Assembly (NCBI RefSeq): GCF_000196355.1
Contig: NC_007614.1
Coordinates: 570,001 to 602,000, forward strand
Direction of reading: 5' to 3'
DNA length: 32,000 nt
From: Nitrosospira multiformis ATCC 25196
Lineage (GTDB): Bacteria; Pseudomonadota; Gammaproteobacteria; Burkholderiales; Nitrosomonadaceae
Shown: positions 15,747 to 32,000 of the stretch, in pieces
Layout of the letters: every line of letters starts with the position of its first letter
How positions within the stretch are numbered: position 1 is the stretch's first letter
The notes under the pieces: model-generated
Told to the model about the DNA's origin: nothing
Seen by the model: only the letters and a program-made list of their open reading frames with translations
Database searches by the model: none
Made by a program: the position numbers and the translations under genes

Positions 15747-15755
15747 AGGATCAAT

Positions 15756-15810
15756 GGGGTCGGAGCCGATTGACTTTCAGAAATCAGTCGACTCCGACTC
15801 CTTGATTTTG
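15756..15810 (+). terminator. Intrinsic terminator hairpin between the convergent lpdA and rh50 genes
   Basis: GGGGTCGGAGCCGATTGAC (15756-15774), loop TTTCAGAA, then ATCAGTCGACTCCGACTCC (15783-15801). 15 of 19 positions pair. TTGATTTTG follows on the plus strand. It lies 10 nt after the lpdA stop and 27 nt after the rh50 stop. Confidence 0.55.
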
Positions 15811-15828
15811 GCTCAGGCCACCGCCCTT

Positions 15829-17052: not shown

Positions 17053-17669
17053 TTTTCCCTCCATATTGTTTACGGTTATCTGACTTGCCCAGGCACAGTG
17101 TGAACCTCGATAGCCTCAAGTACAATAGGGATATTTCAATAAAGTAAACGGACTTCAATTTAAAAAAGAAATACGCGGCCGGGCTTCGAAGTCTCAGCAG
17201 GAGCAGGCGGTATTGATCCTGGGATGTTCGCCGTATGGGAGGGAAAGAAGAGCAGGATTGTGTAGCGGAATTCAAGAAGGACCAGACGAAAAATTTCTGG
17301 TTTCCATACTGTGGAGAGAAACAGCAGATTGCATCTTGCTAGATAGCATACTCACGAGACTTTGAGCCAAAGGCGATGCACCTGATCTTGGATGGCGGCA
17401 AGAAGTGAAGTGCTGTTTGGGGAGTATCGGAGGGCAATGCCTCCCGCGTTTCAGATGGAGGATGGAGAATGGTATTTTCACGGCAGGGCAACGGGGTTGC
17501 GGTCTAAGATGAAGAGGGTGCGCTCAATGCACCCGTTCGCGCAGTGCGACGGCAAGGCCGTTCTTTCCGGACCACATCCTTGGACGCAACATTCCCGGCC
17601 TGCGAACTCTCACTCTTCTTCCCCCGGAACTCGGTTTCGCTGCCCGTTAAAATCCCAGGAGTCCCCTTC

Positions 17670-18296
17670 TTACAGCCTCTTTCTTGACTGATATCTGCGA
17701 TAGAGTTCAAGGACCTTGGGCACGTAATTTCTGGTCTCCTGAAACGGTGGAATCCGGTTTCCGTACTTGATGACGTTGTTTTCGCCAGCATTGTAGGCGG
17801 CCAGGGTGAGGCTCAGATTTCCGTTGAACATTCTCAGCAGCTCGGTGAGATATCTTGCGCCGCCATGGAGATTCTGCACGGGATCGAAGCGATCGATTAC
17901 GCCATATCTTTGGGCAGTTTCCGGCATGAGTTGCATCAGGCCCGCCGCACCCTTTTTTGAAACCGCCCTGGGGTTGTAGGCCGATTCGACAGTAACCACG
18001 GCGTGGAGCAGTGCGTCTTCAAGGGCGTGGGCGCGGGCGACTTCCTTGATTACCGAACCATATTGCGCCTTGAGTGATGCGACCGGATGCCCGTTATTTG
18101 AAGCGGTCCGTGATTTCCTGGAGTTGGCGCTGCTCCCGATGAATGGAACATACCGTTCATCCGCAGGGACGTTGCTGAAATGCACCACCCCATGTTCATC
18201 GGTAAACGAGTAGATGATCTCTGCAGATGCGGGCTGTGTCAATCCATAGCTCAGCAATATCGCTATGGTCAGCGGTGTCGATGATTTCAAGCTCAT
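17670..18296 (-). CDS. Secreted lytic transglycosylase (SLT domain) with an N-terminal DUF4124-like segment
   Basis: 208 aa with signal peptide ...LTQPASA|E. The DUF4124-like segment is IIYSFTDEHGVVHFSNVP. The SLT catalytic region is LLHAVVTVESAYNPRAVSKKGAAGLMQLMPETAQRYG...AAYNAG. Confidence 0.85.
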   Translation of the reverse strand: MSLKSSTPLTIAILLSYGLTQPASAEIIYSFTDEHGVVHFSNVPADERYVPFIGSSANSRKSRTASNNGHPVASLKAQYGSVIKEVARAHALEDALLHAVVTVESAYNPRAVSKKGAAGLMQLMPETAQRYGVIDRFDPVQNLHGGARYLTELLRMFNGNLSLTLAAYNAGENNVIKYGNRIPPFQETRNYVPKVLELYRRYQSRKRL

Positions 18297-18381
18297 AAAG
18301 CCGGAGTCCAGGCTTTCGCCTTTTTTGTATGCCCCGAAGTGGCTGCTAGATTATACTCATGCTCATGTTAAATATTTACTT

Positions 18382-18412
18382 TTTATAAACAGGTATTTTC
18401 CCTGTTTATAAA
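18382..18412. promoter_or_regulatory. Perfect 12-bp inverted repeat (possible operator or AU-rich hairpin) between rsmA and the transglycosylase gene
   Basis: TTTATAAACAGG (18382-18393), spacer TATTTTC, then CCTGTTTATAAA (18401-18412). It lies 97 nt downstream of the rsmA stop and 86 nt upstream of the transglycosylase ATG. A minus-strand TATAAT (plus coordinates 18350-18355) lies between the palindrome and that ATG. Confidence 0.35.
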
Positions 18413-18508
18413 TGAGAAGCGGAGAGCGACAGGGCTTGGTTCGATTGGCTTTTTGCTCTGATCTCAGTTCAGAACTTAGCGTAACACTTCTGCTACTTTC
18501 AATCGACT

Positions 18509-19288
18509 TCAACCGGATCTGACTCTATTAAAGTAGTTTGTAATCGCTACATACTGCGTAATCGATAAGTTTTCCGCTCGAAGATTAGAGTCGATTCCCA
18601 GCTTGAGATAATCCTCCCCCGTAAGATAATCGCGTAACGTGTTGCGCAGTATTTTGCGGCGCTGCGAGAAGGCGGCGGAAACGATTTCCGCAAACAATTT
18701 TTCCTGGCTCGCCTCGATTAGCGGTTTCTTGAGTGGAATCATGCGAACCACGGCCGATTGGACCTTTGGCGGCGGGTGGAAGCATTCAGGCGGAACGATG
18801 AAGAGTTGCTCCATCTCGAAGCGGCATTGCAGCATGACTGAAAGCCGTCCGTAATCCGAAGTAGAGGGTTTGGCTACCATGCGGGCGACCACTTCTTTCT
18901 GTAGCATGAAGTGCATGTCGCGGAGGTGGTCCGTGAACCGGCTCAGGTGGAAAAGGAGCGGAGTGGAAATGTTGTAGGGCAGATTGCCCACTACCCGCAG
19001 ACTTTCACCGAGGCTGGAGAAATCGAATTCGAGCGCATCCCCTTCATGTACTGTCAGCCTTTTCGCAGAAAATTCATTACGTAGCCGCTTCACGATATCC
19101 CGGTCGATCTCCACCACATGCAGATGTTCAAGTGACTGGAGCAGGGGCTGCGTCAATGCTCCCAGTCCTGGGCCGATCTCTACCATTACATCCTCCCGGC
19201 GGGGATGGAGGGCGTGAACAATGTCGGTTACGGTTTGGGAGTCAACCAGGAAATTCTGGCCGAAACGCCTGCGGGGGGTGTGCTGCAT
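18509..19288 (-). CDS. rsmA: 16S rRNA (adenine1518/1519-N6)-dimethyltransferase RsmA/KsgA
   Basis: 259 aa: PRRRFGQNFLVD, SAM-binding VMVEIGPGLGALT, and VVGNLPYNISTP. It sits in the conserved position after pdxA. Confidence 0.95.
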   Translation of the reverse strand: MQHTPRRRFGQNFLVDSQTVTDIVHALHPRREDVMVEIGPGLGALTQPLLQSLEHLHVVEIDRDIVKRLRNEFSAKRLTVHEGDALEFDFSSLGESLRVVGNLPYNISTPLLFHLSRFTDHLRDMHFMLQKEVVARMVAKPSTSDYGRLSVMLQCRFEMEQLFIVPPECFHPPPKVQSAVVRMIPLKKPLIEASQEKLFAEIVSAAFSQRRKILRNTLRDYLTGEDYLKLGIDSNLRAENLSITQYVAITNYFNRVRSG

Positions 19289-19357
19289 GGTTTATGAGGG
19301 TTTGCAGGTTCGTTCATCCTTTGACAAGCTCAGGTGAACGGGATGCAGGGTTGAGAG

Positions 19358-20338
19358 TTATCGCTGATGCGCAACCAGCGATGCCGCCATTTCGATTGCC
19401 GCCACCAGGCTGCCCGGATCAGCTTTGCCTGTTCCTGCCAATTCAAGCGCGGTGCCATGATCCACGGAGGTACGGATGATGGGCAATCCCAGAGTGACGT
19501 TGACGGCAGTGCCAAAGCTCGCGTGCTTGAGCACCGGCAGCCCCTGGTCATGGTACATGGCGAATATGCAGTCGTAATCCTTCAGCTTCGATGGATTGAA
19601 AAGTGTATCGGCAGGCAGGGGGCCGATCAGACTCATCCCCCCGGCGCGCAGCTTGTCGAGCGAAGGGATGATGATATCGATTTCTTCCCTGCCCAGATGA
19701 CCCGATTCCCCTGCATGAGGATTCAGGCCCGCAACGGCAATGCGGGGCTTCGGAATACCGCAGCGAGTGACCAGATCATGCTCGATGATGCGCAGTTTCT
19801 GCTCCAAAGCATCGCTCGTAATGGCACTCGCGACGTCTTTCAGGGGGAGGTGGGTAGTCGCGAGTGCTACCCGCATCCCGCCCCCGGCGAGCATCATGAC
19901 GGGGCGGCCGTTTGTCAGTTGCGCGAGATATTCGGTGTGGCCAGTAAAAGAAATGCCGGCGTCATTGATGACGCCTTTGTGCACCGGCGCCGTTACCATT
20001 GCATCAAACTCGCCATTGACGCATCCAGCAACAGCCCGCTCGAGCGTCTTCAGCACATAGGACGCATTAGCGGCATCGGGTTTACCGGGAGTGGCAGTTT
20101 CGGCCAGAGGAATGTGCAGCACATGCAAAATCCCTTCGCCCGGCCTGTGTTCGGCGCGGGAGGAGTAGTCCGTTATTGTCAAGGGAAGCCGGAGCAAGTG
20201 CGCGCGCTCCTGCAGCAATTCCCTATCGGCAATGACAATGAGCTTGAAAGGCAAACCGAGTTGCGTGATCTGCACGCACAGGTCGGGACCGATGCCGGCG
20301 GGTTCCCCTGCGGTGAGCGCGAGCTTGGGATTATTCAA
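19358..20338 (-). CDS. pdxA: 4-hydroxythreonine-4-phosphate dehydrogenase
   Basis: 326 aa: LALTAGEPAGIGPD, FTGHTEYLA, AGLNPHAGE, DAMVTAPVHK, and TSVDHGTA. It sits in the conserved position after surA. Confidence 0.95.
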   Translation of the reverse strand: MNNPKLALTAGEPAGIGPDLCVQITQLGLPFKLIVIADRELLQERAHLLRLPLTITDYSSRAEHRPGEGILHVLHIPLAETATPGKPDAANASYVLKTLERAVAGCVNGEFDAMVTAPVHKGVINDAGISFTGHTEYLAQLTNGRPVMMLAGGGMRVALATTHLPLKDVASAITSDALEQKLRIIEHDLVTRCGIPKPRIAVAGLNPHAGESGHLGREEIDIIIPSLDKLRAGGMSLIGPLPADTLFNPSKLKDYDCIFAMYHDQGLPVLKHASFGTAVNVTLGLPIIRTSVDHGTALELAGTGKADPGSLVAAIEMAASLVAHQR

Positions 20339-20374
20339 CTTCGGCCCCCGTCTCTTACAAATGTTAACAGACCC

Positions 20375-21697
20375 TTAGCCTTCTTCCAGCCGATACTCGA
20401 CATACGCCCGGTCCCGCAGGCGCTGCAACCATTCCTGGAATGCCGTCTCAGCTTTGCGGGCACGGATCGCCTGGCGTGCAGACTGGCGTTTGCGCTCCTG
20501 ACTTACGTCCTGGGTGCGGCGCTCGATGACTTGAATGAGATGCCATCCAAAGGGAGATTGGACAGGACTGCTGATTTCTCCCGGTTTGAGAGCGCTCATG
20601 GCCTGTTCAAATTCCGGCACCGTATCGCCCGGCGAGATCCAGCCGAGATCACCCCCGGTGGGGGCGCTGGCGTCTTCCGAATGAAGCTTCGCCAGTTCCT
20701 CGAACTTGCTGCCATTATCCAGGCGTTCCTTCAATTCGGTTACACGGCGGTGAGCATCGGCCTCCGAGGTGAGCTCGCTGATTTTTATCAGAATATGGCG
20801 TGCATGTGTCTGGTCTATCATAGTGGTCACCGTATCCTGGTTGCGGCGTTCGACCAGTTTGAGGATATGAAATCCATTCGGGCTCGGAATTATCCCGGTG
20901 ATTTCCCCCGGTTTCATTGGGGTCAGTATTTCGGCAAACTTTTTTGTGAGCTGGGCAGCAGGACGCCAATTGAGCAGGCCGCCTTCCATCGCATCAGGCG
21001 CATCCGAGAATTCCGCGGCTACCTGGGCAAATTCGGTTCCTGCCTTCAATTTTGCCAAGGCGCTTTCTGCCCGTTGCCGTGCCGCATCGCGTTTCAAAGG
21101 GTCGGCTCCTTCGGAGACCTGTATCAGAATATGAGCAATGCGATATTCGTCGCTCTGGCTGGGCGAATCTTCCTGCGTTTCCAGAAAATGATCGACTTCC
21201 CCTTCGGTCACGCTGACGCGGTTGCTTACCTCACGCTCTTTCAGTCTGACCAGGATGATTTCATCGCGAATCTCGTCACGGAACTTGCTGAAGCTGACCC
21301 CGTCTTCCGCCAGCGCCCTGTCGAACTCCTGCAGGGACATCTTGTTTTCCTGCGCGATACGACGCAAAGTCTGGTCGAGTTCCGCGTCGCTCACGGTCAG
21401 TCCGGTTTCATTCGCAAGTTGCAGTTGCACGCGGTTCAGGATTATTCGCTCCAGAAGCTGTTTTTCCAGCACGGCTGGCGGGGGAGGCTGTACGCCTTGC
21501 TTTTGCAATTGTTTCAGCATGGCGCCGAGCATTTCATCCAGTTCATGCCGGGTGATCACATTCTCATTCACGACCGCAACGATATGGTCGATGGTTTCCA
21601 CCCCCGAATGCGCCGGTTGCTGGGCAATGGCCATTCCGGCAAGCAGCGTTAAAAAGGGAAGGGAAAAGGGGGAACGCGACGACAATTTCGTGCCCAT
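20375..21697 (-). CDS. surA: Periplasmic chaperone / peptidyl-prolyl isomerase SurA
   Basis: 440 aa with a signal peptide. The N-terminal chaperone domain is IVAVVNENVITRHELD. Two parvulin domains are present (ARHILIK...GGDLGW, and HILIQV...GGLLNW), plus FGWHLIQVIERR. Confidence 0.92.
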   Translation of the reverse strand: MGTKLSSRSPFSLPFLTLLAGMAIAQQPAHSGVETIDHIVAVVNENVITRHELDEMLGAMLKQLQKQGVQPPPPAVLEKQLLERIILNRVQLQLANETGLTVSDAELDQTLRRIAQENKMSLQEFDRALAEDGVSFSKFRDEIRDEIILVRLKEREVSNRVSVTEGEVDHFLETQEDSPSQSDEYRIAHILIQVSEGADPLKRDAARQRAESALAKLKAGTEFAQVAAEFSDAPDAMEGGLLNWRPAAQLTKKFAEILTPMKPGEITGIIPSPNGFHILKLVERRNQDTVTTMIDQTHARHILIKISELTSEADAHRRVTELKERLDNGSKFEELAKLHSEDASAPTGGDLGWISPGDTVPEFEQAMSALKPGEISSPVQSPFGWHLIQVIERRTQDVSQERKRQSARQAIRARKAETAFQEWLQRLRDRAYVEYRLEEG

Positions 21698-21767
21698 GTG
21701 AATAAGCTTCTGGAATAGGGGAGAGATAGCGTGATCGTGACGTGCGAACAGTGATAGATGCGAGGTG

Positions 21768-24557
21768 CTATGGCCCTTCTATCAAGCCGCTTCCCTGGCT
21801 ACCCGTCCTGATATACCCGGGAATGCTGCGTTGCAATACGGTCAACGGGTTCGATCCGATTTGCATCAGGCCGTTCAACTCAAGTTGCAAAAAAGCCGCT
21901 GTGGTCGATTTCTGCGTAGCAAGGGTCAAATGCTGGAGCACAAACCGCAACGACCAGCAGCAGGCATTATACTCAACTCCTGCCAGCCCTTCCAGAATTC
22001 TCTTATCCTGTAACGAGTAATTCAGGCGGGCCACCGTCTGCCATCTTTCCGACCATCGCCATTGGCTGGAAGCATCCACCTGATGCAGCACATCCCGGGT
22101 AAAACGGTAACCGAAATTCAACACGCGACCCGGCTCCGGACGATAGCTCACACCCGAGCGGACCACATCCGCTAGCAGGCGCGTCTGGTCAAACTGGAAG
22201 CTGGTGTCAGTACTGATGGTCGGTGTAAGAAAACCCGACACTGCGGCAATAAAATCAGGTCGGCGATCGATGGTTTGCGGGGTCTCCAGTGTGATCCGGC
22301 GATCGATAAAGCTTAATTGATGCCCGACCGCCAAACGCAAACGCTCCCTCCCGGTACTGGATTCCAGCAGGCGGGTCGTCAGGGCAAAAGTCACCTGGTT
22401 GGCATCATTGATACGGTCGCTCCCGCTGAAACGGTTTTCCGCCAGCATCTGGGCAAAGCTGAAATCAGTCTTGGCGGAATCGAAATTCGGCAACTGATCT
22501 TGCGCGCGGAATGGGACGTAAACATAGAACACCCGCGGTTCGAGCGTCTGCGTAAAGCTTTCTCCGCCCAGCGACATTTTGCGATCGAAGGCAAGCCCGC
22601 TGTCGAGGCTGAATATCGGCAAGGTGCGGGTGGGGTTTTCCTCGGACACGCCGGCACCCTCCCCGAGGCTGTAACGGGTGTAGTGCATCCCCACCTTGGG
22701 CGTGATGAAACCGAACGAATTGCGAAGAGGGTAGCTCATGCTTGGGAAGAGCACGGTCCTGCTGCCGTTGACGAGGGTGGGGTGGGAGAAGTTGGTCCAG
22801 CTCCCGGAAAGATTGACATCGACCCCCGTTCCGAAGACGTCCGGCTTATTCGCGTTCAATCCCACCTGGGGCAGGCGTTTGTAAGGCACGACAATTGCGG
22901 CCAGGGGATCCTGAATCGTCTGGAAGCTCTGGACAAGCGAGGTTACGTTAAATGTGCCGTCATCCCCCAGCCCGCGATTGTAAGACAGCAATCCCTGCTG
23001 CAGCAGGTTGGTGCGGGATGTGAGATTCAGGTTGTTGCCAAAGTCGCGAAAATAGGTTGCATCCGACACCCTGTTGTAATCCAGGCGAGCGGAAAAACCA
23101 GCGCCCAGATAATGATTGTGCCAGAACGACGTGCGCCACCGCGTCGTTTGCGTATCCAGGTCACGAGGCACGATGTCGGCGAGCAGATTGCTGCTCGAGT
23201 TTTGGCCCAGAAAGCGAAATTCGTTGTTGATCGCCAGGCCGCGCTTTGACATCAGGCGTGCGGAAAACGTGGCGTCATAGTTGGGGGCGATGTTCCAGTA
23301 GAAGGGTACAGCCAGTTCAAGGCCGGTCCTGCTGCCGGTACCGTAGGTCGGCGCCAGCAATCCTGATTTGCGCTCGCCGCTGTATGAGAAATTCATCCAG
23401 GGGGTATACAGTATCGGCACATCCTTGAAGGTGAGCTTCACATTTTTGGCGGTGCCCACTTTCTTGTCATTGTCGAGCTTCAGGTCGGCCACCTGGAGAA
23501 CCCAGCTGTCGTCTCCCACGGGGCACGTGGTATAACTGGCCTTCTGCAGGCGGTACTGGTTCTCGCCTTCGAACAGGAGCATGCCCGCATAACCGCGACT
23601 GCTCGCATCCTTCAGACGATAGCTGGGTTCGCTTAACTGGCCCGTTTTGCTCAGCAGATTGAATTTGAGATCGGATCCTTCCAGGATGTCACCTTCCTTT
23701 TCCACACGGACGTTGCCCTGGGCTTCGGCATCGTTGGTGCCCTGGTTGTATTTCATCCGCTCGGCGGAAATAAACTGAGGGCCGGCAGACAGTTCCGCCT
23801 TGCCTATCGCTTCGATTTCCTCCTCCACGTGGCCTTGCAAGCGATCCGCAACCACGAACACGGGGGACTGTTTGTCCGTTTCCGCTTCAGCTTCTGCCAG
23901 TTTTTGCTCGATTGCCTCGGGCTCAGTCTCGCCGGCAAGACGCAGCTTTTCGTCGCCTGCTTCTTCCCTGTGACCTCCAATGCGCTCGCCTTCTGCAAAC
24001 CCCGGTCTATCTTGGTCTGCTTCGGCCGGTGCAGGTGTCTTCGCGGGCTTCTCCCCGCGCTTTTGCGCGGATAAAGTGCGCGGTGCGGACTGGGTCCTGG
24101 TGCGCAGCCTGGGCTCTCCTTCTTCTGCGGCAGGCCCGGGAAGGCGTTCCACGCCACCCGGTAAAACCATACTTTCCGCCTTCTCCGATTCCTGGGCTGA
24201 GGTGCCTGTCCGGGAGTCGGTTTTTATCGCGGGGGATAGTGTATAGTTCTGCTGAGGCGCGGATGGCGTGTCTTTTGCGGCGGGGTCCGCTTTTTGGTTG
24301 GGTTTTTTTATCTGGTCGGTTGAAATGGTCGAGCGACTGCGCAATTCACTCTCGCTTCTGGTGCCTGACTCGTATTCATGATGGCCCCGGATGCGTTCCG
24401 TATCGATAACCACCGGTTTATCGTCACCCTCACCAGAAGGGGTTGCGCGTCCCTGCTCCGGCTTTGAAGAAAGCGGCGGCAGATCGGCACGCGCATTGCA
24501 GGCAAGGCAAAACAACAAAAACAACCAGCCAGCGGAACGGATAAAACGCAATTTCAT
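21768..24557 (-). CDS. lptD: LPS-assembly outer-membrane protein LptD (Imp/OstA) with an unusually long low-complexity N-terminal extension
   Basis: 929 aa with signal MKLRFIRSAGWLFLLFCLACNARA. The OstA-N-like region starts near VVADRLQGHVEEEIEAIGKAELS...GNVRVEKEGDILEGSDLKFN. A large C-terminal barrel follows (TYGTGSRTGLELAVPFYWNIAPNYDAT and similar). The lptD-surA-pdxA-rsmA order is conserved. Confidence 0.92.
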   Translation of the reverse strand: MKLRFIRSAGWLFLLFCLACNARADLPPLSSKPEQGRATPSGEGDDKPVVIDTERIRGHHEYESGTRSESELRSRSTISTDQIKKPNQKADPAAKDTPSAPQQNYTLSPAIKTDSRTGTSAQESEKAESMVLPGGVERLPGPAAEEGEPRLRTRTQSAPRTLSAQKRGEKPAKTPAPAEADQDRPGFAEGERIGGHREEAGDEKLRLAGETEPEAIEQKLAEAEAETDKQSPVFVVADRLQGHVEEEIEAIGKAELSAGPQFISAERMKYNQGTNDAEAQGNVRVEKEGDILEGSDLKFNLLSKTGQLSEPSYRLKDASSRGYAGMLLFEGENQYRLQKASYTTCPVGDDSWVLQVADLKLDNDKKVGTAKNVKLTFKDVPILYTPWMNFSYSGERKSGLLAPTYGTGSRTGLELAVPFYWNIAPNYDATFSARLMSKRGLAINNEFRFLGQNSSSNLLADIVPRDLDTQTTRWRTSFWHNHYLGAGFSARLDYNRVSDATYFRDFGNNLNLTSRTNLLQQGLLSYNRGLGDDGTFNVTSLVQSFQTIQDPLAAIVVPYKRLPQVGLNANKPDVFGTGVDVNLSGSWTNFSHPTLVNGSRTVLFPSMSYPLRNSFGFITPKVGMHYTRYSLGEGAGVSEENPTRTLPIFSLDSGLAFDRKMSLGGESFTQTLEPRVFYVYVPFRAQDQLPNFDSAKTDFSFAQMLAENRFSGSDRINDANQVTFALTTRLLESSTGRERLRLAVGHQLSFIDRRITLETPQTIDRRPDFIAAVSGFLTPTISTDTSFQFDQTRLLADVVRSGVSYRPEPGRVLNFGYRFTRDVLHQVDASSQWRWSERWQTVARLNYSLQDKRILEGLAGVEYNACCWSLRFVLQHLTLATQKSTTAAFLQLELNGLMQIGSNPLTVLQRSIPGYIRTGSQGSGLIEGP

Positions 24558-26350: not shown

Positions 26351-26869
26351 TCACCGCGGTGATTTTATCTTGCCGCAATTGGCGCTGATCCAGCGCCCCG
26401 TGGTATCCGCATGCTCATTGACGGGAGTGTTTTGCATCGTACCAGTGAACACGGTCCATCCCGAGAAACTTTCCGGCGTCGTAAACGAGCCCTCGGCTCG
26501 CCCCTTGCCCTGTAATTGGGGATTGGTGCAGACGAGGTCCATCTTGTAGTCATTCCCGGTGCGGATGGCATTTTGGATGCTGCATCCCGCTTCGTGAACG
26601 TGCAAATAGGAAGGAATCTCCTGATCCGCCATTTTCCGGGTGATGCAGATTCTGGAGGTGGCCGCTCCATTCTCGATCCGGGGTAAATCCAGTCCATATT
26701 GCTTCGCCAGCTTCGTCAGTTGCTGCATTTGTTCAGGCGGAATCCGCGGCACCAGGGCCAATAGCATCGACGTCGTCGTTATTTCCCATAAGCCGGGCCG
26801 TACGGAGGCGTCTGTCGCATGGCCGACCGAGACCACGAATAACAGTAGTGATGGAAGGATTTTTCGCAT
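26351..26869 (-). CDS. Secreted DUF3617-family protein of unknown function
   Basis: 172 aa with signal peptide MRKILPSLLLFVVSVGHA. The mature N-terminus carries the PGLWEITTT motif I associate with DUF3617. Conserved Cys pairs are present (C..C..C..C). Size is typical for the family. The family call is from memory. Confidence 0.55.
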   Translation of the reverse strand: MRKILPSLLLFVVSVGHATDASVRPGLWEITTTSMLLALVPRIPPEQMQQLTKLAKQYGLDLPRIENGAATSRICITRKMADQEIPSYLHVHEAGCSIQNAIRTGNDYKMDLVCTNPQLQGKGRAEGSFTTPESFSGWTVFTGTMQNTPVNEHADTTGRWISANCGKIKSPR

Positions 26870-27596
26870 CGAATCTTTCAGACCGTTCTTCAGATATCAA
26901 CTGTCAATTATACCAGTCGCCCACAAGGGAGTTGACTCGCGGAAAGCGGAAGGTTTATGTGGCAGACCGATGTTTAGGAAATTCCGTTCCGTTATGAGAT
27001 GGGTAAAAATGCGATGAGGTTGAGATGTTCCTTTACTCGGATCCGAAGTGTTGCCCGCCGCATCGCCCGGGAATTTATGCTGCAGCATCCGGACTTCCTA
27101 CTTCGGTGCAGGCCGGCCGCGAAATCTGGTACAAGGCGACCGCCCGCAACAGCCGCTTTCATATCTATGTGTTTCCCCAGCGCCTCAATGTACTTGTACT
27201 GGTCGACTGGGGTGACAAAGTGCCCATGCCGCGTCCCTCGCATCGCGGAAGGGAGGTCCCCGGATGCAGACAACGCCTCATCCATCCATTGCTTTACTAC
27301 GGGCTAAGGTAGCAGAGTGACTGCGTGCGGAGACGGGCCGTACTCCTGGCGCGATGGAAGTGATTGCCACAGGTTATGAGAACCTGTGCCCTTGCCTCCC
27401 ATCCGCTACCCCTGCAGCACATTTCGGGGCGCCGCAACGGGGAGGAACTGGAGTCGATCGGTGAATTGCTCTCCTTGCCGGAAGGATGCGCAGAGTCATG
27501 AACGGGAATATAAGTGCGGCTCACCTTCCGCTGCCGCCGGTGTCAAATTCCGGGAGAGGGCACGACCAGGAGGAGGCGGAAGATATGGAAACCCTA

Positions 27597-29657
27597 TCAG
27601 ACCTGCATCCTTTCCGCATCCTCGCGGATCACGTCGCACGCTTTTTCGCTTATCATGTAGATGGATGAAGCGATGAAGAACCCGGGTATTTTGGGGAAAA
27701 CGGAAGCATCCACAATGCGCAGGTTCCGGGTGCCATAAACGCGAAACCGGCTGTCGACGACAGCCATGGGATCAGTGGCGGCGCCCATTTTACAAGTGCA
27801 GGAGGCATGATGTCCCCACGCCTGGTTTTTTATAAAACGTTGTATCTCTTCACGGCTCTTGACTTCCGGGCCAGGCAGAACCTCCTCCTCGATCACGTCG
27901 GAGGAGAGCCTGACGATATTGCGCACTGCTTCCACTCCGGCGACAAGTGACTCCATGTCTTCTCCAGCGTTCGTGCCTTCCGAAAAATAATGAAAGTTTA
28001 TATCCGGCACATCGCGCGGATCGGCGGACCGCAGCGTGACCCGCCCGGCTGTATTGGCGGTATGGCCCTTCAGGATGGCCCAGGTAAAGGCGTTTTCTGT
28101 CCTGGCAATGTTATTGGCATAACCCGGATAATATCCGCGGAAATCCCCGATCAGCCCGAAAATGAATAAATCGGGATCCGGGCGTTCTGGAAACGAGCGC
28201 TTCATGAGCGCGATCGTCGCACCATTGGTGGTGTAGGGCCCGACGCCCTGAAGCCACTGGCTGAACTGGGAATCAGGCGCCTCGCCCGGGGCGGGACAGC
28301 GGAGCTTCATTCCCTTGATCAGCGGGATGTTTTCCCTGAGCCGGGTAACCACGCCCAGTTCATAACGATCTTGGAGGTTTTCTCCCACCCCTGGCAAGTC
28401 TACTTTTACCGTGATGCCATGCCCCTCCAGTTCTTCCCGAGGACCGATGCCGGAGAGCTTGAGCAACTGGGGTGTATTGAATGCGCCTGCGGAAACGATC
28501 ACTTCCCGTTCGGCAAGCACGGTTTCCCCGATCCCCGGGGCTGCTGTCCCATGTCGCGGATCCGCACGGTACTGATGGGCGCCGGAAATGTACTCCACTC
28601 CATAGGCCTTGTTCTGTTCATCGAGCAGGATACGCTTCGCCAGCGCATGAGTTCTGACTTCGAGAAAATTCGGACACTGCTCGCGAACGCGCAATATGTA
28701 CTCCCGGGCTCCAGCCCGACGCCCCTGCCGGGTGGTGATCGGTATCTTGCACAAGCCTTCTGGCCTTCTCCGGATAAAACGCCAATCGTTGGGATCACCA
28801 TGGGTTTTTATCTTGAGCAAGGTCCGTTTGATCGGGTTGATAATGCCGCTGAGTGATTCCTCGAGCGCGGCTTTTGAGAGCCTCCTAAGGACTTTGTCCC
28901 TCAGCAGCATTTCCCGCTCTGCCAGATTTGTTGGAAGCCAGCCTCCGAATCCATGGCGGCTATCCGGTTCTTCAGCCCGGGTGGCATACTCGCAGCGCTC
29001 CATGCGCTTGAAGTATTTCTGCATATTTTCGCTGCGCCAGGATTCGTCGCCGGTCTTTTCGGCGATATAGTCCCAATCGCTATTGTGGGGATAGATCAAC
29101 AGCATGGCATTGTGCGCGGTACATCCCCCCAAGGTCCCCGAGCGCGGGTACAGCACGCCGTTCCGTTCCGGAATGAACTTGTCATCCCGTTTCTGCTGCT
29201 CGTCGTCCGCATAGTGACGCACAAAGAAGTCCCAGCGCAGCGCCTCGTGCTCGGAGGCGCGCGCGTGAAAGGCGGGAACGTAATATTCGCAGGGATCGTC
29301 TTCTCCCCCAGCCTCCAGCAGCAGCACGCGGAAACCCTTCAAAGCGAGGTTGCAGGCGAGCGGACCTCCGCCCGCTCCGGAACCGATGATGATGTAATCG
29401 AATTTGTTCCCGGCAGCGGAGGGACAATTCAGGTGGACAAAGGGGCGCGAGGACCCCTTCCAGAGAAGGGTAGAGCAACTGGCAAGAAAGGTGCTTGCGC
29501 CGGATACCAGCAGGGCGGTGAGCTTGACAAAACGGCGTCGGGAGATCAAGGCGAAATCAATCGTATTTTTCTGCGGAGAGTCGCGAAAATGATTATAAAG
29601 GAAAAGTTTCCGCCGGTTTGGCTGCAACTTCCCTTCGGTTTGGCCTCCGTTTTGCAA
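27597..29657 (-). CDS. GMC-family FAD oxidoreductase (choline/alcohol dehydrogenase-like) with a twin-arginine signal and a lipobox-like cysteine
   Basis: FAD ADP-binding fold YIIIGSGAGGGPLACNLALKGFRVLLLEAGGE. The C-terminal GMC active-site region is WGHHASCTCKMGAATDPMAVVDSRFRVYGTRNLRIVDASVFPKIPGFF. The Tat motif SRRRFVK is at residues 39-45 (nt 29543-29523), followed by a hydrophobic stretch and LASC (nt 29486-29475). The start is uncertain. The track start at 29657 is a TTG only 10 nt from a strong hairpin. An in-frame TTG at 29549 would give MISRRRFVKL. Confidence 0.85.
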   Translation of the reverse strand: MQNGGQTEGKLQPNRRKLFLYNHFRDSPQKNTIDFALISRRRFVKLTALLVSGASTFLASCSTLLWKGSSRPFVHLNCPSAAGNKFDYIIIGSGAGGGPLACNLALKGFRVLLLEAGGEDDPCEYYVPAFHARASEHEALRWDFFVRHYADDEQQKRDDKFIPERNGVLYPRSGTLGGCTAHNAMLLIYPHNSDWDYIAEKTGDESWRSENMQKYFKRMERCEYATRAEEPDSRHGFGGWLPTNLAEREMLLRDKVLRRLSKAALEESLSGIINPIKRTLLKIKTHGDPNDWRFIRRRPEGLCKIPITTRQGRRAGAREYILRVREQCPNFLEVRTHALAKRILLDEQNKAYGVEYISGAHQYRADPRHGTAAPGIGETVLAEREVIVSAGAFNTPQLLKLSGIGPREELEGHGITVKVDLPGVGENLQDRYELGVVTRLRENIPLIKGMKLRCPAPGEAPDSQFSQWLQGVGPYTTNGATIALMKRSFPERPDPDLFIFGLIGDFRGYYPGYANNIARTENAFTWAILKGHTANTAGRVTLRSADPRDVPDINFHYFSEGTNAGEDMESLVAGVEAVRNIVRLSSDVIEEEVLPGPEVKSREEIQRFIKNQAWGHHASCTCKMGAATDPMAVVDSRFRVYGTRNLRIVDASVFPKIPGFFIASSIYMISEKACDVIREDAERMQV

Positions 29658-29666
29658 TAAGAACTC

Positions 29667-29693
29667 GCACCGCTCCCCTCGGTGGAGCGGTGC
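29667..29693 (-). terminator. GC-rich 10-bp stem-loop between the cytochrome c gene and the GMC gene (terminator, attenuator or mRNA-processing/stability element)
   Basis: GCACCGCTCC (29667-29676), loop CCTCGGT, then GGAGCGGTGC (29684-29693), a perfect 10-bp stem. On the minus-strand transcript it is followed by GAGUUCUUAUUGC, which is only moderately U-rich. It lies 28 nt after the upstream gene's stop. Confidence 0.4.
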
Positions 29694-29721
29694 TTCTGGT
29701 GGTGATCCCTCACGCGGCGCG

Positions 29722-32000
29722 TCACATCGTTTTCAGGAATTCGATCAATGCGCGTTTGTCGCTATCTCCGAGTCCCGGCCGTCCTTCGTCTCCCGGCAGA
29801 TAATCGGTCCCAAAGTAGTGACCCCGGTTGACCACGAAGTCCGGGCATTTGCTTACGCCGAGCAGGGGATCGACCAGATTGGAATAGACCTTGCGTAATT
29901 CCGCATCCGTGATCCGATCGGGCGTTACCTTGGCGGCGATCAAATCTCCCAGATGACCTTTGAGTGTCTTCAGCAGCGTCTTGACTTCGCCGCCTCTTTT
30001 TTCGAGGTCCAGGTTGGACAGAAGGCTGACGGGTGTGCCCTCCGGTATGGGGCCCAGATTCAACACGCCGTCATGAATCGGCAACCTCACATACCAGGGC
30101 AGATAACCCTCCGGTATCAGCAGCCAGCTTCTCGCCCAGGTTCGATCGATAATGCCTGGCACTTCCTTGCCCGAGCGGGTGACATATGTGCGGTTTTCGC
30201 AGCTTGTTCGTTCCTGATCTCCATAATTCTTTTCCGCATAGTAACTCCCCCCGTACAGGTCTTCCTGGTCGCAGTAGCGTTTTTCCGGCCAGAGCAATTG
30301 CTCTATCCCGCTATAAAAGGATTTCATCCTGTCCTCAACGGTGCCTGAGGGATAGAATTTGCCCAAGGTGTTATTCAACAGAAAGGGCGCCGAGGACCAG
30401 AGGCTCGCAAGCGAAGGCGGCCGGATATACCCGCGACCGCCATCTGGCATGGGATAGGAGCGGGGCTCCCGTGTCACGGGATGGTGAACCAGCGCACTTC
30501 CGACCGAGGGTAGTTCTTTGTACGAGGTGGAAGAGAAATTATCCCAGGTATCCCCCTTGAGCGCGTTGGTTGCAAGGGAAGCGCAAATATTCGTTTCAAG
30601 GAGGGTGACAGGAACGCGCAACTCGGTAGAAAGATAATTGTCAGCAAGAAAATCCTCCTTCAGTACGATCTCTTTCATCTCCTGCCTGAACTCGTCGGTC
30701 TTTGTCCAGTTCCAGTACTGGTTCCAGCAACTCAGGTAATCAGGCCCGACGCAACCGTTATTGGGGAAGAATTTTACCGCTTTCTCCGGCAGCTTGCTCG
30801 AGTGGCAGCCGGCGCAGTTCTCCGCAAATACTTCCTTGCCGCGTTTCAGGGTGGCCGCATCAGCGGTCAAATGATGCCGGCCTCCCGGCGCTTCCGCCAG
30901 ATAATCCGGCCGGCTGGCTGCGAGGAAAAACAGCGATGTATCCAGGGTCTGGTTTTCCGTTGCCCGCCAATAGCTGGAATTCTTGTTGGCAGTGGCGATC
31001 GGGAATGGCGTGAATGGCTTGCCCCCGATGAGTGGATTGATATGCTGAAGCCATTCTTCGCTGAAGAGTCCGATATTTACGAAAACGCGGTTAAAGGCGC
31101 CGAGCGCGCCCACGGAATCAGCCCCATCCTTGAGCACCCGTGGGGTGAACACCGTACCCGATTTTTCGAAGAACCTTCTCAGCGGACTTTCGGAAGATAT
31201 TTCCCGATAATCATTAAACTGCTTATTGTTCAGCTCATCACCCGTCAGCTGCTCCTTGCCCGAGCGCAATGCATTTTTCATTCGCGCACCCAGGTTATAT
31301 ACCCCATTCATGCTGCGCGGATTATTCATGTAGTCCGTTGAAATGAGGGAAGTATCCAGGGCACCGGGGCGATTGGTGCTGAGGAACTGATAGGCGAAGC
31401 TGTTCTTGTCGGCTTCGTAGGCGAATATCCGGTCGAACCAGAAATATTGCGCCCCGGGATTGGAATTAAGGTTGGCCCACTGCGGGTTCTCCGGATCCTT
31501 CGGCGGATTGGAAGGGTTCGGGCCCACATGACAGAATCCGCACGACATCCCCACCCGGTAGGGCTTCACCAGATTTGCATCGTTGTAGTAGGACGGATCG
31601 GTATAATACCTTTCCGGGTCCCAGCGCTTTTTTGCGGCCTCATCGAAATCGGGATTGGGGAACAACCGCAGTCCTACAATCCCGCTCGCATATCCGTAGT
31701 AGGACCCGATCGGCACTGTCTTCCCCCGCGACCCGATCTTTACGCCAGGGTATTTCTCTTCATTCTCGAACGGGTCGCTTGCGCAATTCGGATCGCGCAC
31801 GTCGAGATACAGGCCGAAGCGGTCGGGGCGTCCCAATGGATTGCCCTGTGCATCCACGTTTTTCCTGAAGCACGGTTCATTGACAAGACCGAACCAGTAC
31901 CATCGGTTATCCCGGCTATATCCGGGATTTTTCATGAGGTGCGGATGATTTGAAAGCACCTTCAGGAGATCGAAGCTGCCCTGGCTGTTGATATTGAGAT
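29722..32000 (-). CDS. Large periplasmic di-heme c-type cytochrome, distantly related to cytochrome c peroxidase/MauG; the N-terminus lies beyond the right edge
   Basis: There are two CxxCH motifs: CGFCH (nt 31542-31528) and CAGCH (nt 30816-30802). CCP-like C-terminal landmarks are present: IRPPSLASLWSSAPFLLNNTLG (compare vPsLRn...tAPYfHdG) and the terminal DSDKRALIEFLKTM (compare ...LvaFLktL). The track starts the ORF at a GTG at 31959. My translation shows the frame stays open to base 32000 (..LNINSQGSFDLLK-VLSNHPHL..), so the gene is probably truncated by the window. Confidence 0.75.
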   Translation of the reverse strand, partial: LNINSQGSFDLLKVLSNHPHLMKNPGYSRDNRWYWFGLVNEPCFRKNVDAQGNPLGRPDRFGLYLDVRDPNCASDPFENEEKYPGVKIGSRGKTVPIGSYYGYASGIVGLRLFPNPDFDEAAKKRWDPERYYTDPSYYNDANLVKPYRVGMSCGFCHVGPNPSNPPKDPENPQWANLNSNPGAQYFWFDRIFAYEADKNSFAYQFLSTNRPGALDTSLISTDYMNNPRSMNGVYNLGARMKNALRSGKEQLTGDELNNKQFNDYREISSESPLRRFFEKSGTVFTPRVLKDGADSVGALGAFNRVFVNIGLFSEEWLQHINPLIGGKPFTPFPIATANKNSSYWRATENQTLDTSLFFLAASRPDYLAEAPGGRHHLTADAATLKRGKEVFAENCAGCHSSKLPEKAVKFFPNNGCVGPDYLSCWNQYWNWTKTDEFRQEMKEIVLKEDFLADNYLSTELRVPVTLLETNICASLATNALKGDTWDNFSSTSYKELPSVGSALVHHPVTREPRSYPMPDGGRGYIRPPSLASLWSSAPFLLNNTLGKFYPSGTVEDRMKSFYSGIEQLLWPEKRYCDQEDLYGGSYYAEKNYGDQERTSCENRTYVTRSGKEVPGIIDRTWARSWLLIPEGYLPWYVRLPIHDGVLNLGPIPEGTPVSLLSNLDLEKRGGEVKTLLKTLKGHLGDLIAAKVTPDRITDAELRKVYSNLVDPLLGVSKCPDFVVNRGHYFGTDYLPGDEGRPGLGDSDKRALIEFLKTM

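Follow-up and report, generated by a model that had tools for sequence, protein, structure and literature searches.

The 32,000-nt window analysed here, a stretch of the Nitrosospira multiformis ATCC 25196 genome, carries two neighbouring genes on its minus strand, one for a di-heme c-type cytochrome lipoprotein of the RoxA-like superfamily and one for a GMC-family FAD oxidoreductase. The cytochrome gene (29722-32000) is present as its 3' 2.3 kb, with a reading frame of 758 codons and a stop that runs from 31998 down to 29722 and is open at the window edge. Its visible part is identical, at 758 of 758 residues, to the C-terminal part of the 881-aa protein ABB73834/Q2YBN7 of the same strain, and about 123 residues therefore lie beyond base 32000. 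The GMC gene was assigned from Pfam matches and an AF2 model. The 64-nt gap and 686-aa product of the original prediction hold for its longest frame (27597-29657) and not for its likely start, a TTG at 29549, which gives 650 aa (27597-29549) and a gap of 172 nt. This start agrees with RefSeq WP_238529854 (649/649 identical), and it is where cross-genus conservation of the GMC region begins.

Residues of the cytochrome are given in full-length numbering. Its first heme-binding motif, CGFCH (31528-31542; C276/C279/H280), is invariant in our cytochrome alignment (A1), occurs in 116 of the 120 listed homologues, and is aligned by hhalign to CAVCH of the RoxA-like family. By analogy with H195 of RoxA, its heme is a candidate for the catalytic one, with the His as its sole protein ligand. 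The second motif, CAGCH (30802-30816; C518/C521/H522), coincides with a Pfam Cytochrom_C match, has invariant Cys, Cys and His, and anchors the hhalign alignment with the RoxA-like family (Prob 85%). The two lie 242 residues apart, in line with the roughly 240 first proposed, and each of the 120 listed homologues has two CxxCH motifs and no more, at a spacing of 239-245 residues. Between 30361 and 30441 lies a CCP/MauG/RoxA-type motif, GGRGYIRPPSLASLWSSAPFLLNNTLG, in a region matched by NCBIfam NF040606 in 52/52 members tested; via the RoxA-like family alignment (A3) it aligns with GYIAPPLYGAWATAPYFHNGSVP of RoxA. The MauG-motif His, kept in RoxA, RoxB and PA2077/78, is here a Leu, as it is in 102 of the 120 listed homologues (APFLLNN). 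Near the C-terminus, NRGHYFG (29809-29829), found in 115 of these 120, contains a His850 that is invariant in A1 and is collinear with 'GNsNaGHeG...ALVEYlKTl' of the RoxA-like family and 'GNDNGGHDF...ALIEYIKTL' of RoxA. His850 may be the distal ligand of heme 2, corresponding to RoxA H641. The full-length homologue P0001 carries a signal peptide and a lipobox, LLIGC.

This cytochrome family is large and strongly conserved. We recovered more than 7,700 homologues at 56-98% identity. At 50% clustering the family counts 2,696 representatives, of which 884 reach E<=1e-30, it is present in at least 566 of the 600 genome stretches examined, and identity between phyla is unusually high at 56-64%. Databases give the family no functional annotation beyond 'hypothetical' or 'c-type cytochrome', and a check for membership of an already characterised family placed neither protein in one, the GMC being named 'choline dehydrogenase'.

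The cytochrome is an enlarged, very divergent relative of RoxA-like di-heme oxygenases, and not a canonical CCP/MauG protein. RoxA itself acts on C=C bonds, which it cleaves or oxygenates with O2, and its distal Phe (F317) stabilises bound O2. Profile comparison of A1 with A3 by hhalign aligns residues 93-881 with 6-521 in collinear order (Prob 83%, E 9.5e-6), and A3 in turn matches the RoxA structure 4b2n at E 1.9e-17. Heme 1, heme 2, the MauG motif and the C-terminal His are collinear with H195, H394, the H517 motif and H641 of RoxA; H280, H522 and H850 are invariant in A1, and only the motif His deviates. The C-terminal CCP/MauG landmarks predicted earlier are real, but the kinship is with the RoxA-like oxygenase branch and extends over the whole length, beyond the C-terminus. 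The RoxA relationship is nevertheless remote, because NF040606, although matched by all 52 aligned members (E 1e-8 to 2e-12), scores 34.6-36.1 bits against a curated membership cutoff of 150, and neither sequence and profile searches of the PDB nor Foldseek with a low-confidence cytochrome model (pLDDT 68) gave any match, 4b2n included. The RoxA and RoxB profiles are matched only by an 846-aa di-heme paralogue (15-16 bits against cutoffs of 900-1000), which retains the MauG-motif His (APFLHNN), and RoxC is matched by one of the 52 family members (E ~0.01). Classification as canonical CCP/MauG was rejected: PF03150 gave no match at E<=1 with either the window protein or P0001, the motif His is lost, and at 881 aa the protein is more than twice the canonical size.

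Both GMC domains of the flavoprotein lie well above threshold (GMC_oxred_N, PF00732, 9e-25, 88 bits against a cutoff of 23; GMC_oxred_C, PF05199, 2e-33, 116 against 24.6), and the FAD site GxGxxG reads GSGAGGG (residues 56-62). The AF2 model (pLDDT 87, pTM 0.88) has a complete GMC fold, its TM scores being 0.83-0.90 when normalised to the target structures, and its best Foldseek matches, at E 1e-44, are fatty acid photodecarboxylase (FAP), bacterial alcohol oxidase and choline oxidase, with FAP only marginally ahead of choline oxidase. The database name choline dehydrogenase BetA does not fit (TIGR01810, 239 bits against a cutoff of 732; NF002550, 279 against 605). Where GMC enzymes have a catalytic pair of His with His or Asn, the active-site region here (27639-27818) has an invariant His, H581 in WGHHASCTCKMG, and an invariant Phe, F625 in DASVFPKIPGFFI. 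Residue-by-residue alignment to CmO 8b7s, BetA and FAP shows F625 where the second catalytic His/Asn would be, aligned to the Asn of CmO 8b7s and 10 residues ahead of a conserved Glu, so that a hydrophobic Phe-Phe-Ile replaces the polar partner. With this substitution the enzyme could conceivably not oxidise alcohols at all. Unusual invariant residues of the GMC alignment include HH, C584/C586 and FF, and the alignment shows no conserved Cys cluster for an Fe-S centre.

A Tat motif, a hydrophobic region and a lipobox (29475-29543; SRRRFVK at 29523-29543, LASC at 29475-29486) predict that the N. multiformis GMC is a Tat-exported lipoprotein, with TIGR01409 scoring 12.6 bits against a cutoff of 16.7. 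The motifs named in the original prediction are therefore present in the window, but the periplasmic location they imply is not conserved: about 25 of 63 GMC loci have such a signal, whereas in 27 of the 63 orthologues the reading frame extends no more than 38 codons ahead of the FAD motif, which leaves no room for a signal peptide. Signal-less lineages include Nitrosomonas, Methylocystis and Acidobacteriota, and likewise Rhizobium. Because a c-type cytochrome must be extracytoplasmic, the two proteins would lie on opposite sides of the membrane in those lineages.

The gap between the genes holds two elements of possible regulatory significance. The GC-rich hairpin that had been pointed out before lies at 29667-29693 on the minus strand, 28 nt past the cytochrome stop, and consists of a 10-bp stem with 8 GC pairs, a 7-nt loop and a T-containing tail. 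N. multiformis strains share this hairpin, L003 showing a single compensatory change from C-G to U-A, and it is possibly a terminator or attenuator; a scan for terminator-like sites found one against 2.9 expected in shuffles, a count not above chance. Closer to the GMC gene, a -10-like hexamer, TATAAT (29592-29597, minus strand), sits within the conserved block TTTCCTTTATAAT, which all N. multiformis loci share with Nitrosovibrio. It is possibly a separate GMC promoter, and the promoter scan made no call there, a good -35 being absent. Given the hairpin and the conserved box between them, the two genes may be transcribed partly independently in N. multiformis.

Beyond the GMC gene, on the plus strand, remnants of a deleted paralogous module are detectable by tblastn at 27058-27458 (78% and 76% identity), corresponding to residues 50-98 of the 846-aa di-heme paralogue (27058-27210) and to the last 74 residues of a 682-aa protein with two CxxCH motifs (27237-27458). 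In strains Nl7 and Nl12 and in Nitrosovibrio this module is intact and lies between the GMC gene and the DUF3617 gene; in it the 846-aa paralogue is paired with another cytochrome with two CxxCH motifs and not with a flavoenzyme.

The same-strand adjacency noted at the outset is a property of a real conserved module. Across at least 6 phyla, 66 of the 75 informative loci have the cytochrome and GMC genes as immediate neighbours on the same strand, the GMC lying directly downstream in 63 and directly upstream in 3; these loci span, among others, Beta-, Gamma- and Alphaproteobacteria, Acidobacteriota, Nitrospirota, Methylomirabilota and Binatia. This adjacency bears out the suggestion of a functional couple. 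Divergence in one protein also tracks divergence in the other (Spearman 0.70). We found no description of the pair or its function in the literature. The host is an ammonia oxidiser, as had been supposed. The pair is found in every ammonia-oxidiser genus recovered (Nitrosospira, Nitrosovibrio, Nitrosomonas); it is also found in several hundred other genomes, and so is no oddity of N. multiformis.

Around the pair the neighbourhood is variable: there is no universal third gene, and the flanking genes are for the most part housekeeping genes without relation to the pair. Certain neighbours nevertheless recur in independent lineages. We observe a patatin-like phospholipase in about nine loci and in Rhizobium, an animal-haem peroxidase in about 16 loci (Nitrospira, Methylomirabilales and Binatia among them), a lipoxygenase in ammonia oxidisers and a DyP operon in 22 loci, as well as RoxA-like proteins, P450 and OYE ene-reductase. 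On plasmid pRL11 of Rhizobium johnstonii, in S. fredii and in one Methylococcaceae genome, the pair is part of a seven-gene same-strand operon in the order OYE, RoxA-like, 143-aa protein, RoxA-like, cytochrome, GMC, patatin. This context points to oxidation of a lipid-like substrate, and favours a lipid or oxylipin over the sugar- or alcohol-type substrate originally envisaged.

We tentatively propose, at somewhat short of an even chance, that the pair comprises two sequential enzymes of an undescribed oxylipin-type pathway. The substrate class is drawn solely from the gene neighbourhood, and the order of steps and the catalytic heme are likewise proposals. The substrate would be hydrophobic and lipid-like, most plausibly an unsaturated fatty acid freed from membrane lipid. 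In a first step, the N-terminal CGFCH heme of the 881-aa lipoprotein would bind O2 or a hydroperoxide, and the di-heme enzyme would oxygenate or isomerise the olefinic lipid, much as RoxA acts on polyisoprene and PA2077/PA2078 on oleate; the C-terminal bis-His heme (H522/H850) would have a structural or electron-buffering role. In a second, the GMC would oxidise the resulting (allylic) alcohol to a carbonyl via FAD and the retained His581. In larger operons the patatin-like phospholipase might provide the free acid upstream and the OYE ene-reductase might reduce the enone downstream, and in N. multiformis both enzymes of the pair would be held by lipid anchors at the periplasmic face. In favour of this reading, the best structural matches of the GMC model are the fatty-acid-binding FAP and bacterial alcohol oxidases, and its active site is hydrophobic where the polar partner would be. 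Of the coupling models weighed here, a pathway acting on a membrane-permeant substrate is the only one that fits signal-less GMCs alongside an extracytoplasmic cytochrome. Known RoxA-type oxygenases need no partner, however, so a simple two-step pathway does not explain the near-obligate pairing with a flavoprotein. More doubtful is the broader possibility that the pair lies at the core of an oxylipin or lipid-oxidation system that is widespread in bacteria and so far unrecognised. In it a new family of giant RoxA-like di-heme fatty-acid (per)oxygenases would be obligatorily associated with an atypical Phe-GMC, and the pair would be accompanied, depending on lineage, by genes for phospholipase, COX-like peroxidase, lipoxygenase, DyP and ene-reductase.

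A flavocytochrome-type redox couple, in which a GMC dehydrogenase passes FADH2 electrons directly to the cytochrome hemes, is unlikely. The cytochrome would either relay the electrons to the respiratory chain or use them to (re)activate its own catalytic heme, the pair then being a reductase and a heme enzyme; bacterial CCPs do need reductive activation. Near-obligate pairing, fixed order and very high conservation of both proteins are typical of physically interacting subunits, and the pairing of the 846-aa paralogue with a 2xCxxCH cytochrome suggests that such large heme proteins depend on a partner for electron transfer. There is ample precedent for periplasmic GMC-cytochrome c dehydrogenase complexes (PMC6719666). 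The original view of the cytochrome as electron acceptor of the GMC holds up to the extent that both N. multiformis proteins are predicted periplasmic lipoproteins, but as a conserved logic it is weakened by the 27 of 63 signal-less GMCs, whose partners would sit across the membrane. A hitch-hiker subunit that could carry such GMCs through Tat was not found among the pair's neighbours, where DUF4331 carries a Sec signal and the 143-aa protein lacks any, and the large two-heme RoxA-like cytochrome and a GMC lacking an Fe-S Cys cluster are a poor match to the known dehydrogenase complexes.

Less probable still is an oxidase/peroxidase couple, the other coupling first suggested, in which the GMC would make H2O2 from O2 and a di-heme peroxidase or peroxygenase would consume it on a second substrate. 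Fungal GMC oxidases supply haem peroxidases with H2O2 in this manner, the di-heme superfamily contains the H2O2-using CCP, MauG and BthA, and DyP and animal-haem peroxidases cluster near the pair. His146 of the GMC, in GGCTAHN, also aligns with what we take to be the covalent-FAD His99 of choline oxidase, an oxidase, although sequence cannot tell an oxidase from a dehydrogenase. The same signal-less GMCs weaken this hand-off, and while H2O2 crosses membranes, making the topological objection less absolute, passing it across the membrane in about half of the lineages would be wasteful and dangerous, and a diffusible coupling needs no such strict adjacency. The cytochrome, moreover, has lost the MauG-motif His, and the RoxA branch, its closest relative, lacks peroxidase activity (PMC6311187).

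Maturation of the MauG/MbnH kind, in which the di-heme enzyme would oxidise residues of the GMC or another protein to form a cofactor or cross-link, is very improbable. MauG-preMADH and MbnH-MbnP are precedents in which a di-heme enzyme is encoded beside its protein substrate (PMC6405878), and the unusual invariant HH, C584/C586 and FF of the GMC could suit such a role; signal-less GMCs could not meet a periplasmic maturase, though, the cytochrome is nearer the RoxA branch than MauG, and the lipid-enzyme neighbourhood would go unexplained. That unrelated genes merely travel together is scarcely credible, for all that a hairpin and a -10-like box separate them in Nitrosospira and six loci have the cytochrome with no GMC within 10 kb, as the adjacency is kept across at least 6 phyla, in unrelated contexts and on plasmids, with gaps outside Nitrosospira often of 3-30 nt.

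Both proteins thus come from known superfamilies, and the module they form fits no described system. Bacterial oxylipin biology is barely explored, mainly from Pseudomonas, and the proposed pathway, if correct, would give the field a testable and widespread system linked to phospholipase, COX-like, LOX and OYE genes, one copy of which is plasmid-borne in Rhizobium johnstonii 3841, a strain amenable to genetics. Were the broader system real, it would let nitrifiers, methanotrophs, rhizobia and Acidobacteriota produce or remodel oxidised lipids, whether as signals, for defence or to repair their membranes. Nitrifier physiology gains a conserved set of extracytoplasmic oxidative enzymes, and a GMC with Phe for His/Asn is an interesting enzymological variant by itself.

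Compared with known GMC oxidoreductases (choline oxidase and dehydrogenase, FAP, alcohol oxidases and CmO), the pair's flavoprotein shares the fold, the GxGxxG motif and the His in H-x-x-x-T-C-x-M-G, and differs in its invariant Phe, in an N domain enlarged by an insertion of about 100 residues and, in some lineages, in its Tat-lipoprotein signal. Burkholderia FAD-GDH and Gluconobacter fructose dehydrogenase likewise have a GMC-type FAD subunit encoded beside a c-type cytochrome gene and Tat export of the folded flavoprotein. Those complexes have a tri-heme cytochrome of ~45-50 kDa, a small Tat hitch-hiker and a 3Fe-4S cluster in the catalytic subunit (PMC6719666), all three absent from the pair, whose neighbours include no conserved small Tat-signal gene.

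With Pfam PF03150 CCP/MauG proteins the cytochrome shares two CxxCH motifs and the C-terminal-domain motif '(F/Y)-R-x-P-S-L-...-A-P-(Y/F)-(F/L)-x-(D/N)-(G/N)', but where that family has P-Y-(F/L/M)-H-(D/N)-G with its His, the cytochrome has A-P-F-L-L-N-N, and its closest characterised relatives are oxygenases without peroxidase activity. Its sole characterised relatives are the few di-heme enzymes that oxygenate olefins (rubber, oleate). With RoxA and RoxB (Steroidobacter cummioxidans 35Y; PDB 4b2n) and the uncharacterised ~500-aa RoxA-like family (NF040606, Pfam PF21419) it shares two covalent c-type hemes, export, and large size with many loop insertions around a CCP-like core, and with RoxA and the RoxA-like family the motif order followed by a C-terminal Gly-His and an ...ALIE(Y/F)(I/L)KT(L/M) end. 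The ligand scheme, loop insertions and lack of peroxidase activity of RoxA have been described (PMC6311187). At 881 aa the cytochrome is larger than either (678 or ~500 aa), with a heme spacing of 242 versus 199 residues in RoxA, and unlike RoxA it is a predicted lipoprotein and not secreted, is paired with a GMC flavoprotein, and has Leu for the MauG-motif His. The oleate-diol synthase 'FadCcp' subfamily of Pseudomonas aeruginosa, compared by published description only, comprises the 10S-dioxygenase PA2077 and the 7,10-diol synthase PA2078, periplasmic di-heme CCP-related enzymes that oxygenate lipids and do not reduce H2O2 (PMC4496055). These are shorter (634 and 624 aa), keep the His of PYFHNGSVP, and form a tandem paralogue pair without a GMC partner. 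Their heme spacings of 245 and 235 nevertheless lie close to the 239-245 of the cytochrome family, they too have the N-terminal heme bound by one His and the other heme by a second, C-terminal His (PMC4496055), H611 being 23 residues from the C-terminus where H850 is 31, and the lipid-enzyme gene context of the cytochrome is consistent with FadCcp-type chemistry.

The cytochrome gene and the gene for the GMC-family FAD oxidoreductase remain adjacent across related and distant genomes, and together they are a conserved two-gene module. The original prediction of a functional couple would have lost ground had the two not stayed neighbours elsewhere. Instead, in a scan of one genome per species (cytochrome relatives in at least 566 of 600 candidate stretches; 80 loci kept, 5 added from exact-protein look-ups), 75 loci had enough flank to place the GMC gene, and in 63 it lies immediately downstream of the cytochrome gene on the same strand. 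It is immediately upstream on the same strand in three, divergent and upstream in two, 7 kb downstream in one, and missing within 10 kb in six. The pair occurs, among others, in Nitrosospira, Nitrosovibrio, Nitrosomonas, Thauera, Cognatazoarcus, Methylococcaceae, Methylocystis, Methylocapsa, Thiorhodococcus, Marinobacterium, Pseudomarimonas, Acidobacteriota, Nitrospira, Methylomirabilales and Binatia, while the flanking genes otherwise differ and are unrelated between lineages. The further one protein has diverged from its window copy, the further its partner tends to have diverged too (Spearman 0.70 over 64 loci; 0.33, p=0.02, for distant loci). A universal third partner gene was rejected, as the two nearest genes on each side at ~57 loci are mostly singletons.

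Reading frames and motifs confirm that the window ends on two same-strand genes, the upstream one encoding two CxxCH sites. The cytochrome gene is open on the minus strand from 31998, past the window end, to a stop codon at 29722-29724. The 758 residues inside the window match the C-terminal portion of ABB73834/Q2YBN7 (881 aa, N. multiformis ATCC 25196) without a difference and carry CGFCH and CAGCH motifs 242 residues apart. A signal was to be sought on the complete protein, and full-length homologues do open with a signal peptide and lipobox (...LLIGC in homologue P0001, ...LLLAGC in N. europaea); a lipobox-like motif is present in 82 of 112. The GMC protein, identical at 649/649 residues to RefSeq WP_238529854 from the ATCC 25196 genome, bears the predicted Tat-like SRRRFVK, lipobox LASC and both GMC Pfam domains. 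Its proposed length of 686 aa, with a 64-nt gap, holds for the longest ORF, from TTG 29657, but the likely start is TTG 29549 (MISRRRFVK..., 650 aa, 172-nt gap), because the RefSeq start and the onset of conservation among Nitrosospira, Nitrosovibrio and a related uncultured genome coincide there. GenBank entries give 676-697 aa from upstream TTG/GTG starts (window 29549-29657); RefSeq and cross-genus conservation favour the 650-aa form. Rfam and tRNA scans of the window returned no matches.

Between the two genes, the predicted hairpin at 29667-29693 is real in sequence, and a TATAAT at 29592-29597 lies inside a block, TTTCCTTTATAAT, kept in all N. multiformis strains and Nitrosovibrio. A promoter scan did not call the TATAAT because there is no -35. 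Given the hairpin and the conserved block, the GMC gene may have its own promoter in N. multiformis, with the hairpin as a partial terminator. Gaps of 3-30 nt are common in lineages other than Nitrosospira, and this tight spacing argues that co-transcription is the ancestral state. On the far side of the GMC gene, ATCC 25196 has a ~5.5 kb deletion that left two plus-strand remnants, at 27058-27210 (residues 50-98 of an 846-aa di-heme paralogue whose full-length identity to the main cytochrome is 25%) and, fused to it, at 27237-27458 (the last 74 residues of a 682-aa protein with two CxxCH motifs). In strains Nl7 and Nl12, in Nitrosovibrio and in an uncultured relative this module is still whole (the 846-aa protein, a lipoprotein of 302 aa and the 682-aa protein) and stands between the GMC and DUF3617 genes. 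The DUF3617 gene itself (26351-26869, minus strand; lipoprotein-like, 172 aa), directly beyond the remnants, is probably unrelated to the pair, since it is beside the locus in N. multiformis strains only.

The cytochrome is not a canonical CCP/MauG protein: PF03150 was not matched, and the second heme site was the sole region matched in a Pfam search. Sequence and profile searches of the PDB gave nothing specific. An AlphaFold2 model built with 52 homologues reached pLDDT 67.8 and pTM 0.74, was of low confidence near the two heme sites, and found no match in the PDB by Foldseek. NCBIfam NF040606 ('di-heme cytochrome c peroxidase') is hit by all 52 members of the cytochrome alignment, with E values from 1e-8 to 2e-12, though at ~35 bits against a cutoff of 150, and two paralogues touch Pfam RoxA-like_Cyt-c, one of them touching the RoxA/RoxB models too. 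NF040606 is a family of ~500-aa RoxA-like proteins, encoded adjoining the pair in some genomes, whose profile matches the RoxA rubber-oxygenase structure solved by crystallography (4b2n), with E 2e-17. An hhalign comparison of cytochrome and NF040606 alignments is collinear (residues 93-881 to 6-521, Prob 83%, E 1e-5) and aligns four landmarks: the first heme site (RVGMSCGFCHVG versus RVWLNCAVCHTG), the second heme site, the MauG-type motif (GGRGYIRPPSLASLWSSAPFLLNN versus GYANxPLDGIWARSPYLHNG) and the C-terminus (NRGHYFG...KRALIEFLKTM versus NaGHeG...KDAIVEYMKTF, with GGHDF...ALIEYIKTL in RoxA).

RoxA has a CCP-like core swollen by loops and lacks peroxidase activity; His195 is the sole protein ligand of its O2-binding N-terminal heme, and its C-terminal heme is bis-His, through H394 and H641 (PMC6311187). 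By this mapping, the invariant H280, H522 and H850 of the cytochrome would be the equivalents of these ligands. The heme motifs are 239-245 residues apart in 120/120 homologues, unlike RoxA (199) but like P. aeruginosa PA2077 (245) and PA2078 (235), a fatty-acid 10S-dioxygenase and a 7,10-diol synthase, respectively (PMC4496055). The MauG-motif His present in RoxA, RoxB and PA2077/78 is replaced by Leu in the cytochrome (APFLLNN in 102/120 homologues). The cytochrome thus represents an enlarged and strongly diverged branch within the RoxA-like section of the bCCP/MauG superfamily. The protein falls outside every curated family, and its branch counts 2,696 representatives (50% clustering) at E<=1e-3 and 884 at E<=1e-30, with lengths of ~700-1,300 aa. 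In two Acidobacteriota loci a second, 728-aa paralogue follows the first (L062:12246-14432; L080:12172-14361), with the GMC gene divergent upstream; this paralogue retains the motif His (APFLHNN), unlike the main family.

The GMC model is confident (pLDDT 87, pTM 0.88) and best superposes on fatty acid photodecarboxylase, Streptomyces alcohol oxidase and choline oxidase (E 1e-44 to 1e-42; TM 0.83-0.90 on targets). The betA equivalog scores are missed by a wide margin, so the annotated 'choline dehydrogenase' is a mere pipeline label. The catalytic His is retained (WGHH581ASCTCKMG). The second catalytic residue of GMC enzymes is typically His or Asn; here that position is an invariant Phe (DASVFPKIPGFF625I), ten residues before a conserved Glu and aligned to the Asn of chloramphenicol oxidase 8b7s. 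Another invariant His, in GGCTAH146N, occupies what we take to be the position of choline oxidase's covalent-FAD His99, which we treat as a lead.

Because the window ends inside the cytochrome gene, the upstream context is seen solely in other records; the window shows just the housekeeping side of the locus (DUF3617, Mpl, LptD, SurA, PdxA). In the N. multiformis record L082, the genes upstream of the cytochrome are, in order, a tyrosinase, an FAD_binding_4 oxidase, a divergent four-gene operon and a lipoxygenase. In N. europaea (L081) the operon is upstream of the pair, and two animal-haem peroxidases, a lipoxygenase and a tyrosinase are downstream. These form an island of oxidative enzymes, with the pair at its edge (L082:1-9912, beyond window base 32000; L081:5072-9617 and 14807-22670). 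The operon (L082:1547-6239 and L081:5072-9617, both minus strand) encodes proteins of 143 aa and 434 aa (the latter with a membrane hairpin at its centre), a genuine DyP-type peroxidase of ~505 aa (E 1e-37 to PDB DyPs) and a 401-aa protein. None has a signal peptide, and the three other than the peroxidase have no Pfam, NCBIfam or PDB match; a catalase-like assignment of the 401-aa protein, made by eye, was accordingly dropped. The operon adjoins the pair in ammonia oxidisers, uncultured Betaproteobacteria, a Methylococcales genome and Terriglobales. Across 85 loci, recurrent neighbours include this operon (22 loci), animal-haem peroxidases (~16, on the same strand beside the pair in Nitrospira, Methylomirabilales and Binatia), DUF4331 proteins (13), patatin-like or NTE-like phospholipases (9), lipoxygenases (8) and RoxA-like proteins (4).

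The fullest arrangement is a tight, same-strand seven-gene operon on plasmid pRL11 of Rhizobium johnstonii 3841 (526540-538892, RL_RS32270 to RL_RS32240; L086:4026-16378, plus strand), which encodes an NADH:flavin oxidoreductase (OYE), a 508-aa RoxA-like protein, a 143-aa membrane protein, a 491-aa RoxA-like protein, the cytochrome (929 aa), the GMC (597 aa) and a patatin-like phospholipase. Its pair shows 43% identity, and the gene order recurs in S. fredii pSF45436e (L087) and a Methylococcaceae locus (L057); one Competibacteraceae locus also encodes a P450 and a further GMC. pRL110509, an 'oxidoreductase' needed in nodule bacteria, maps ~12 kb away and is not an operon member. The plasmid belongs to a model rhizobium that is amenable to genetics, and the operon offers a ready point of entry for experiments.

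That the GMC is a Tat-exported lipoprotein, as originally proposed, fits the window protein and the ~25 of 63 loci in which an RR motif precedes a lipobox (Nitrosospira, Nitrosovibrio, several uncultured Betaproteobacteria, Thauera, Cognatazoarcus, Nitrospira and some Gammaproteobacteria), but this trait is not conserved. When each adjacent GMC frame was read upstream to the previous stop codon, 27 of the 63 had at most 38 in-frame codons before GxGxxG, leaving no room for a signal; the window protein carries its signal ahead of a GxGxxG that begins at residue 56. The signal-less set includes all Nitrosomonas, Methylocystis and Methylocapsa, most Acidobacteriota and several Gammaproteobacteria (L081:12773-14719, L084:12540-14462, L086:11682-13475 and 24 other loci). 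The N. europaea protein begins MIEPASPENNQIDSDSDEKFDYVVIGSGAGGG, and the Rhizobium protein, also without a signal peptide, begins MSDGPTHDYIVIGSGAGG 3 nt after the cytochrome stop. Since c-type cytochromes are matured outside the cytoplasm, the partners would lie on opposite sides of the membrane in about half of the lineages, unless an unknown export route exists. A Tat hitch-hiker subunit as in FAD-glucose dehydrogenase was not found among the DUF4331 and operon proteins beside the GMC: the former is a Sec protein and the 143-aa, 434-aa, DyP and 401-aa proteins are signal-less. DUF4331 (~375 aa, conserved mature N-terminus SDHADP; e.g., L084:14483-15613, L083:8706-9830) flanks the pair at every locus where it was found, with a signal-less GMC in each; our full-text literature searches found no mention of it.

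From context, we tentatively favour an oxygenation/oxidation pathway in which the cytochrome and then the GMC act on lipid. The cytochrome would oxygenate or isomerise an unsaturated lipid at its N-terminal heme, the GMC would convert the resulting alcohol to a carbonyl, and, where present, a phospholipase and an OYE would extend the pathway upstream and downstream. This would explain the kinship with RoxA/FadCcp, the neighbours, and the way the GMC active site has been reshaped by hydrophobic residues, and it is the sole one of three coupling models to tolerate partners across the membrane, since the substrate can cross. It leaves the strict flavoprotein requirement unexplained, as RoxA and PA2077/78 act alone, and this keeps alive the idea, part of the original prediction, that the GMC passes electrons to the cytochrome. 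That model, which we judge unlikely, draws further support from N. multiformis, where both proteins are predicted periplasmic lipoproteins, and from the 846-aa paralogue, which pairs with another two-heme cytochrome and not with a flavoenzyme. Less likely than either are the hand-off of H2O2 from GMC to cytochrome that had also been proposed, which seems improbable, and a MauG-like maturation role for the cytochrome, to which we give very little credence.

We found no description of the pair, the cytochrome family or the operons in the full-text literature, and database names for the proteins are all generic. The novelty is a large RoxA-like family, as yet uncharacterised, that is locked to an atypical GMC. 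Specialists in heme enzymes and bacterial lipids should find the pairing surprising, and it lends itself readily to testing, but the system is not of a categorically new type, because both folds belong to known superfamilies. Plant and fungal oxylipin pathways are assembled from a phospholipase, fatty-acid dioxygenases (LOX, the COX/LDS-type haem peroxidase superfamily and RoxA/FadCcp-type di-heme enzymes) and an ene-reductase, and, by analogy, the pair's neighbours may be read against that set of parts.
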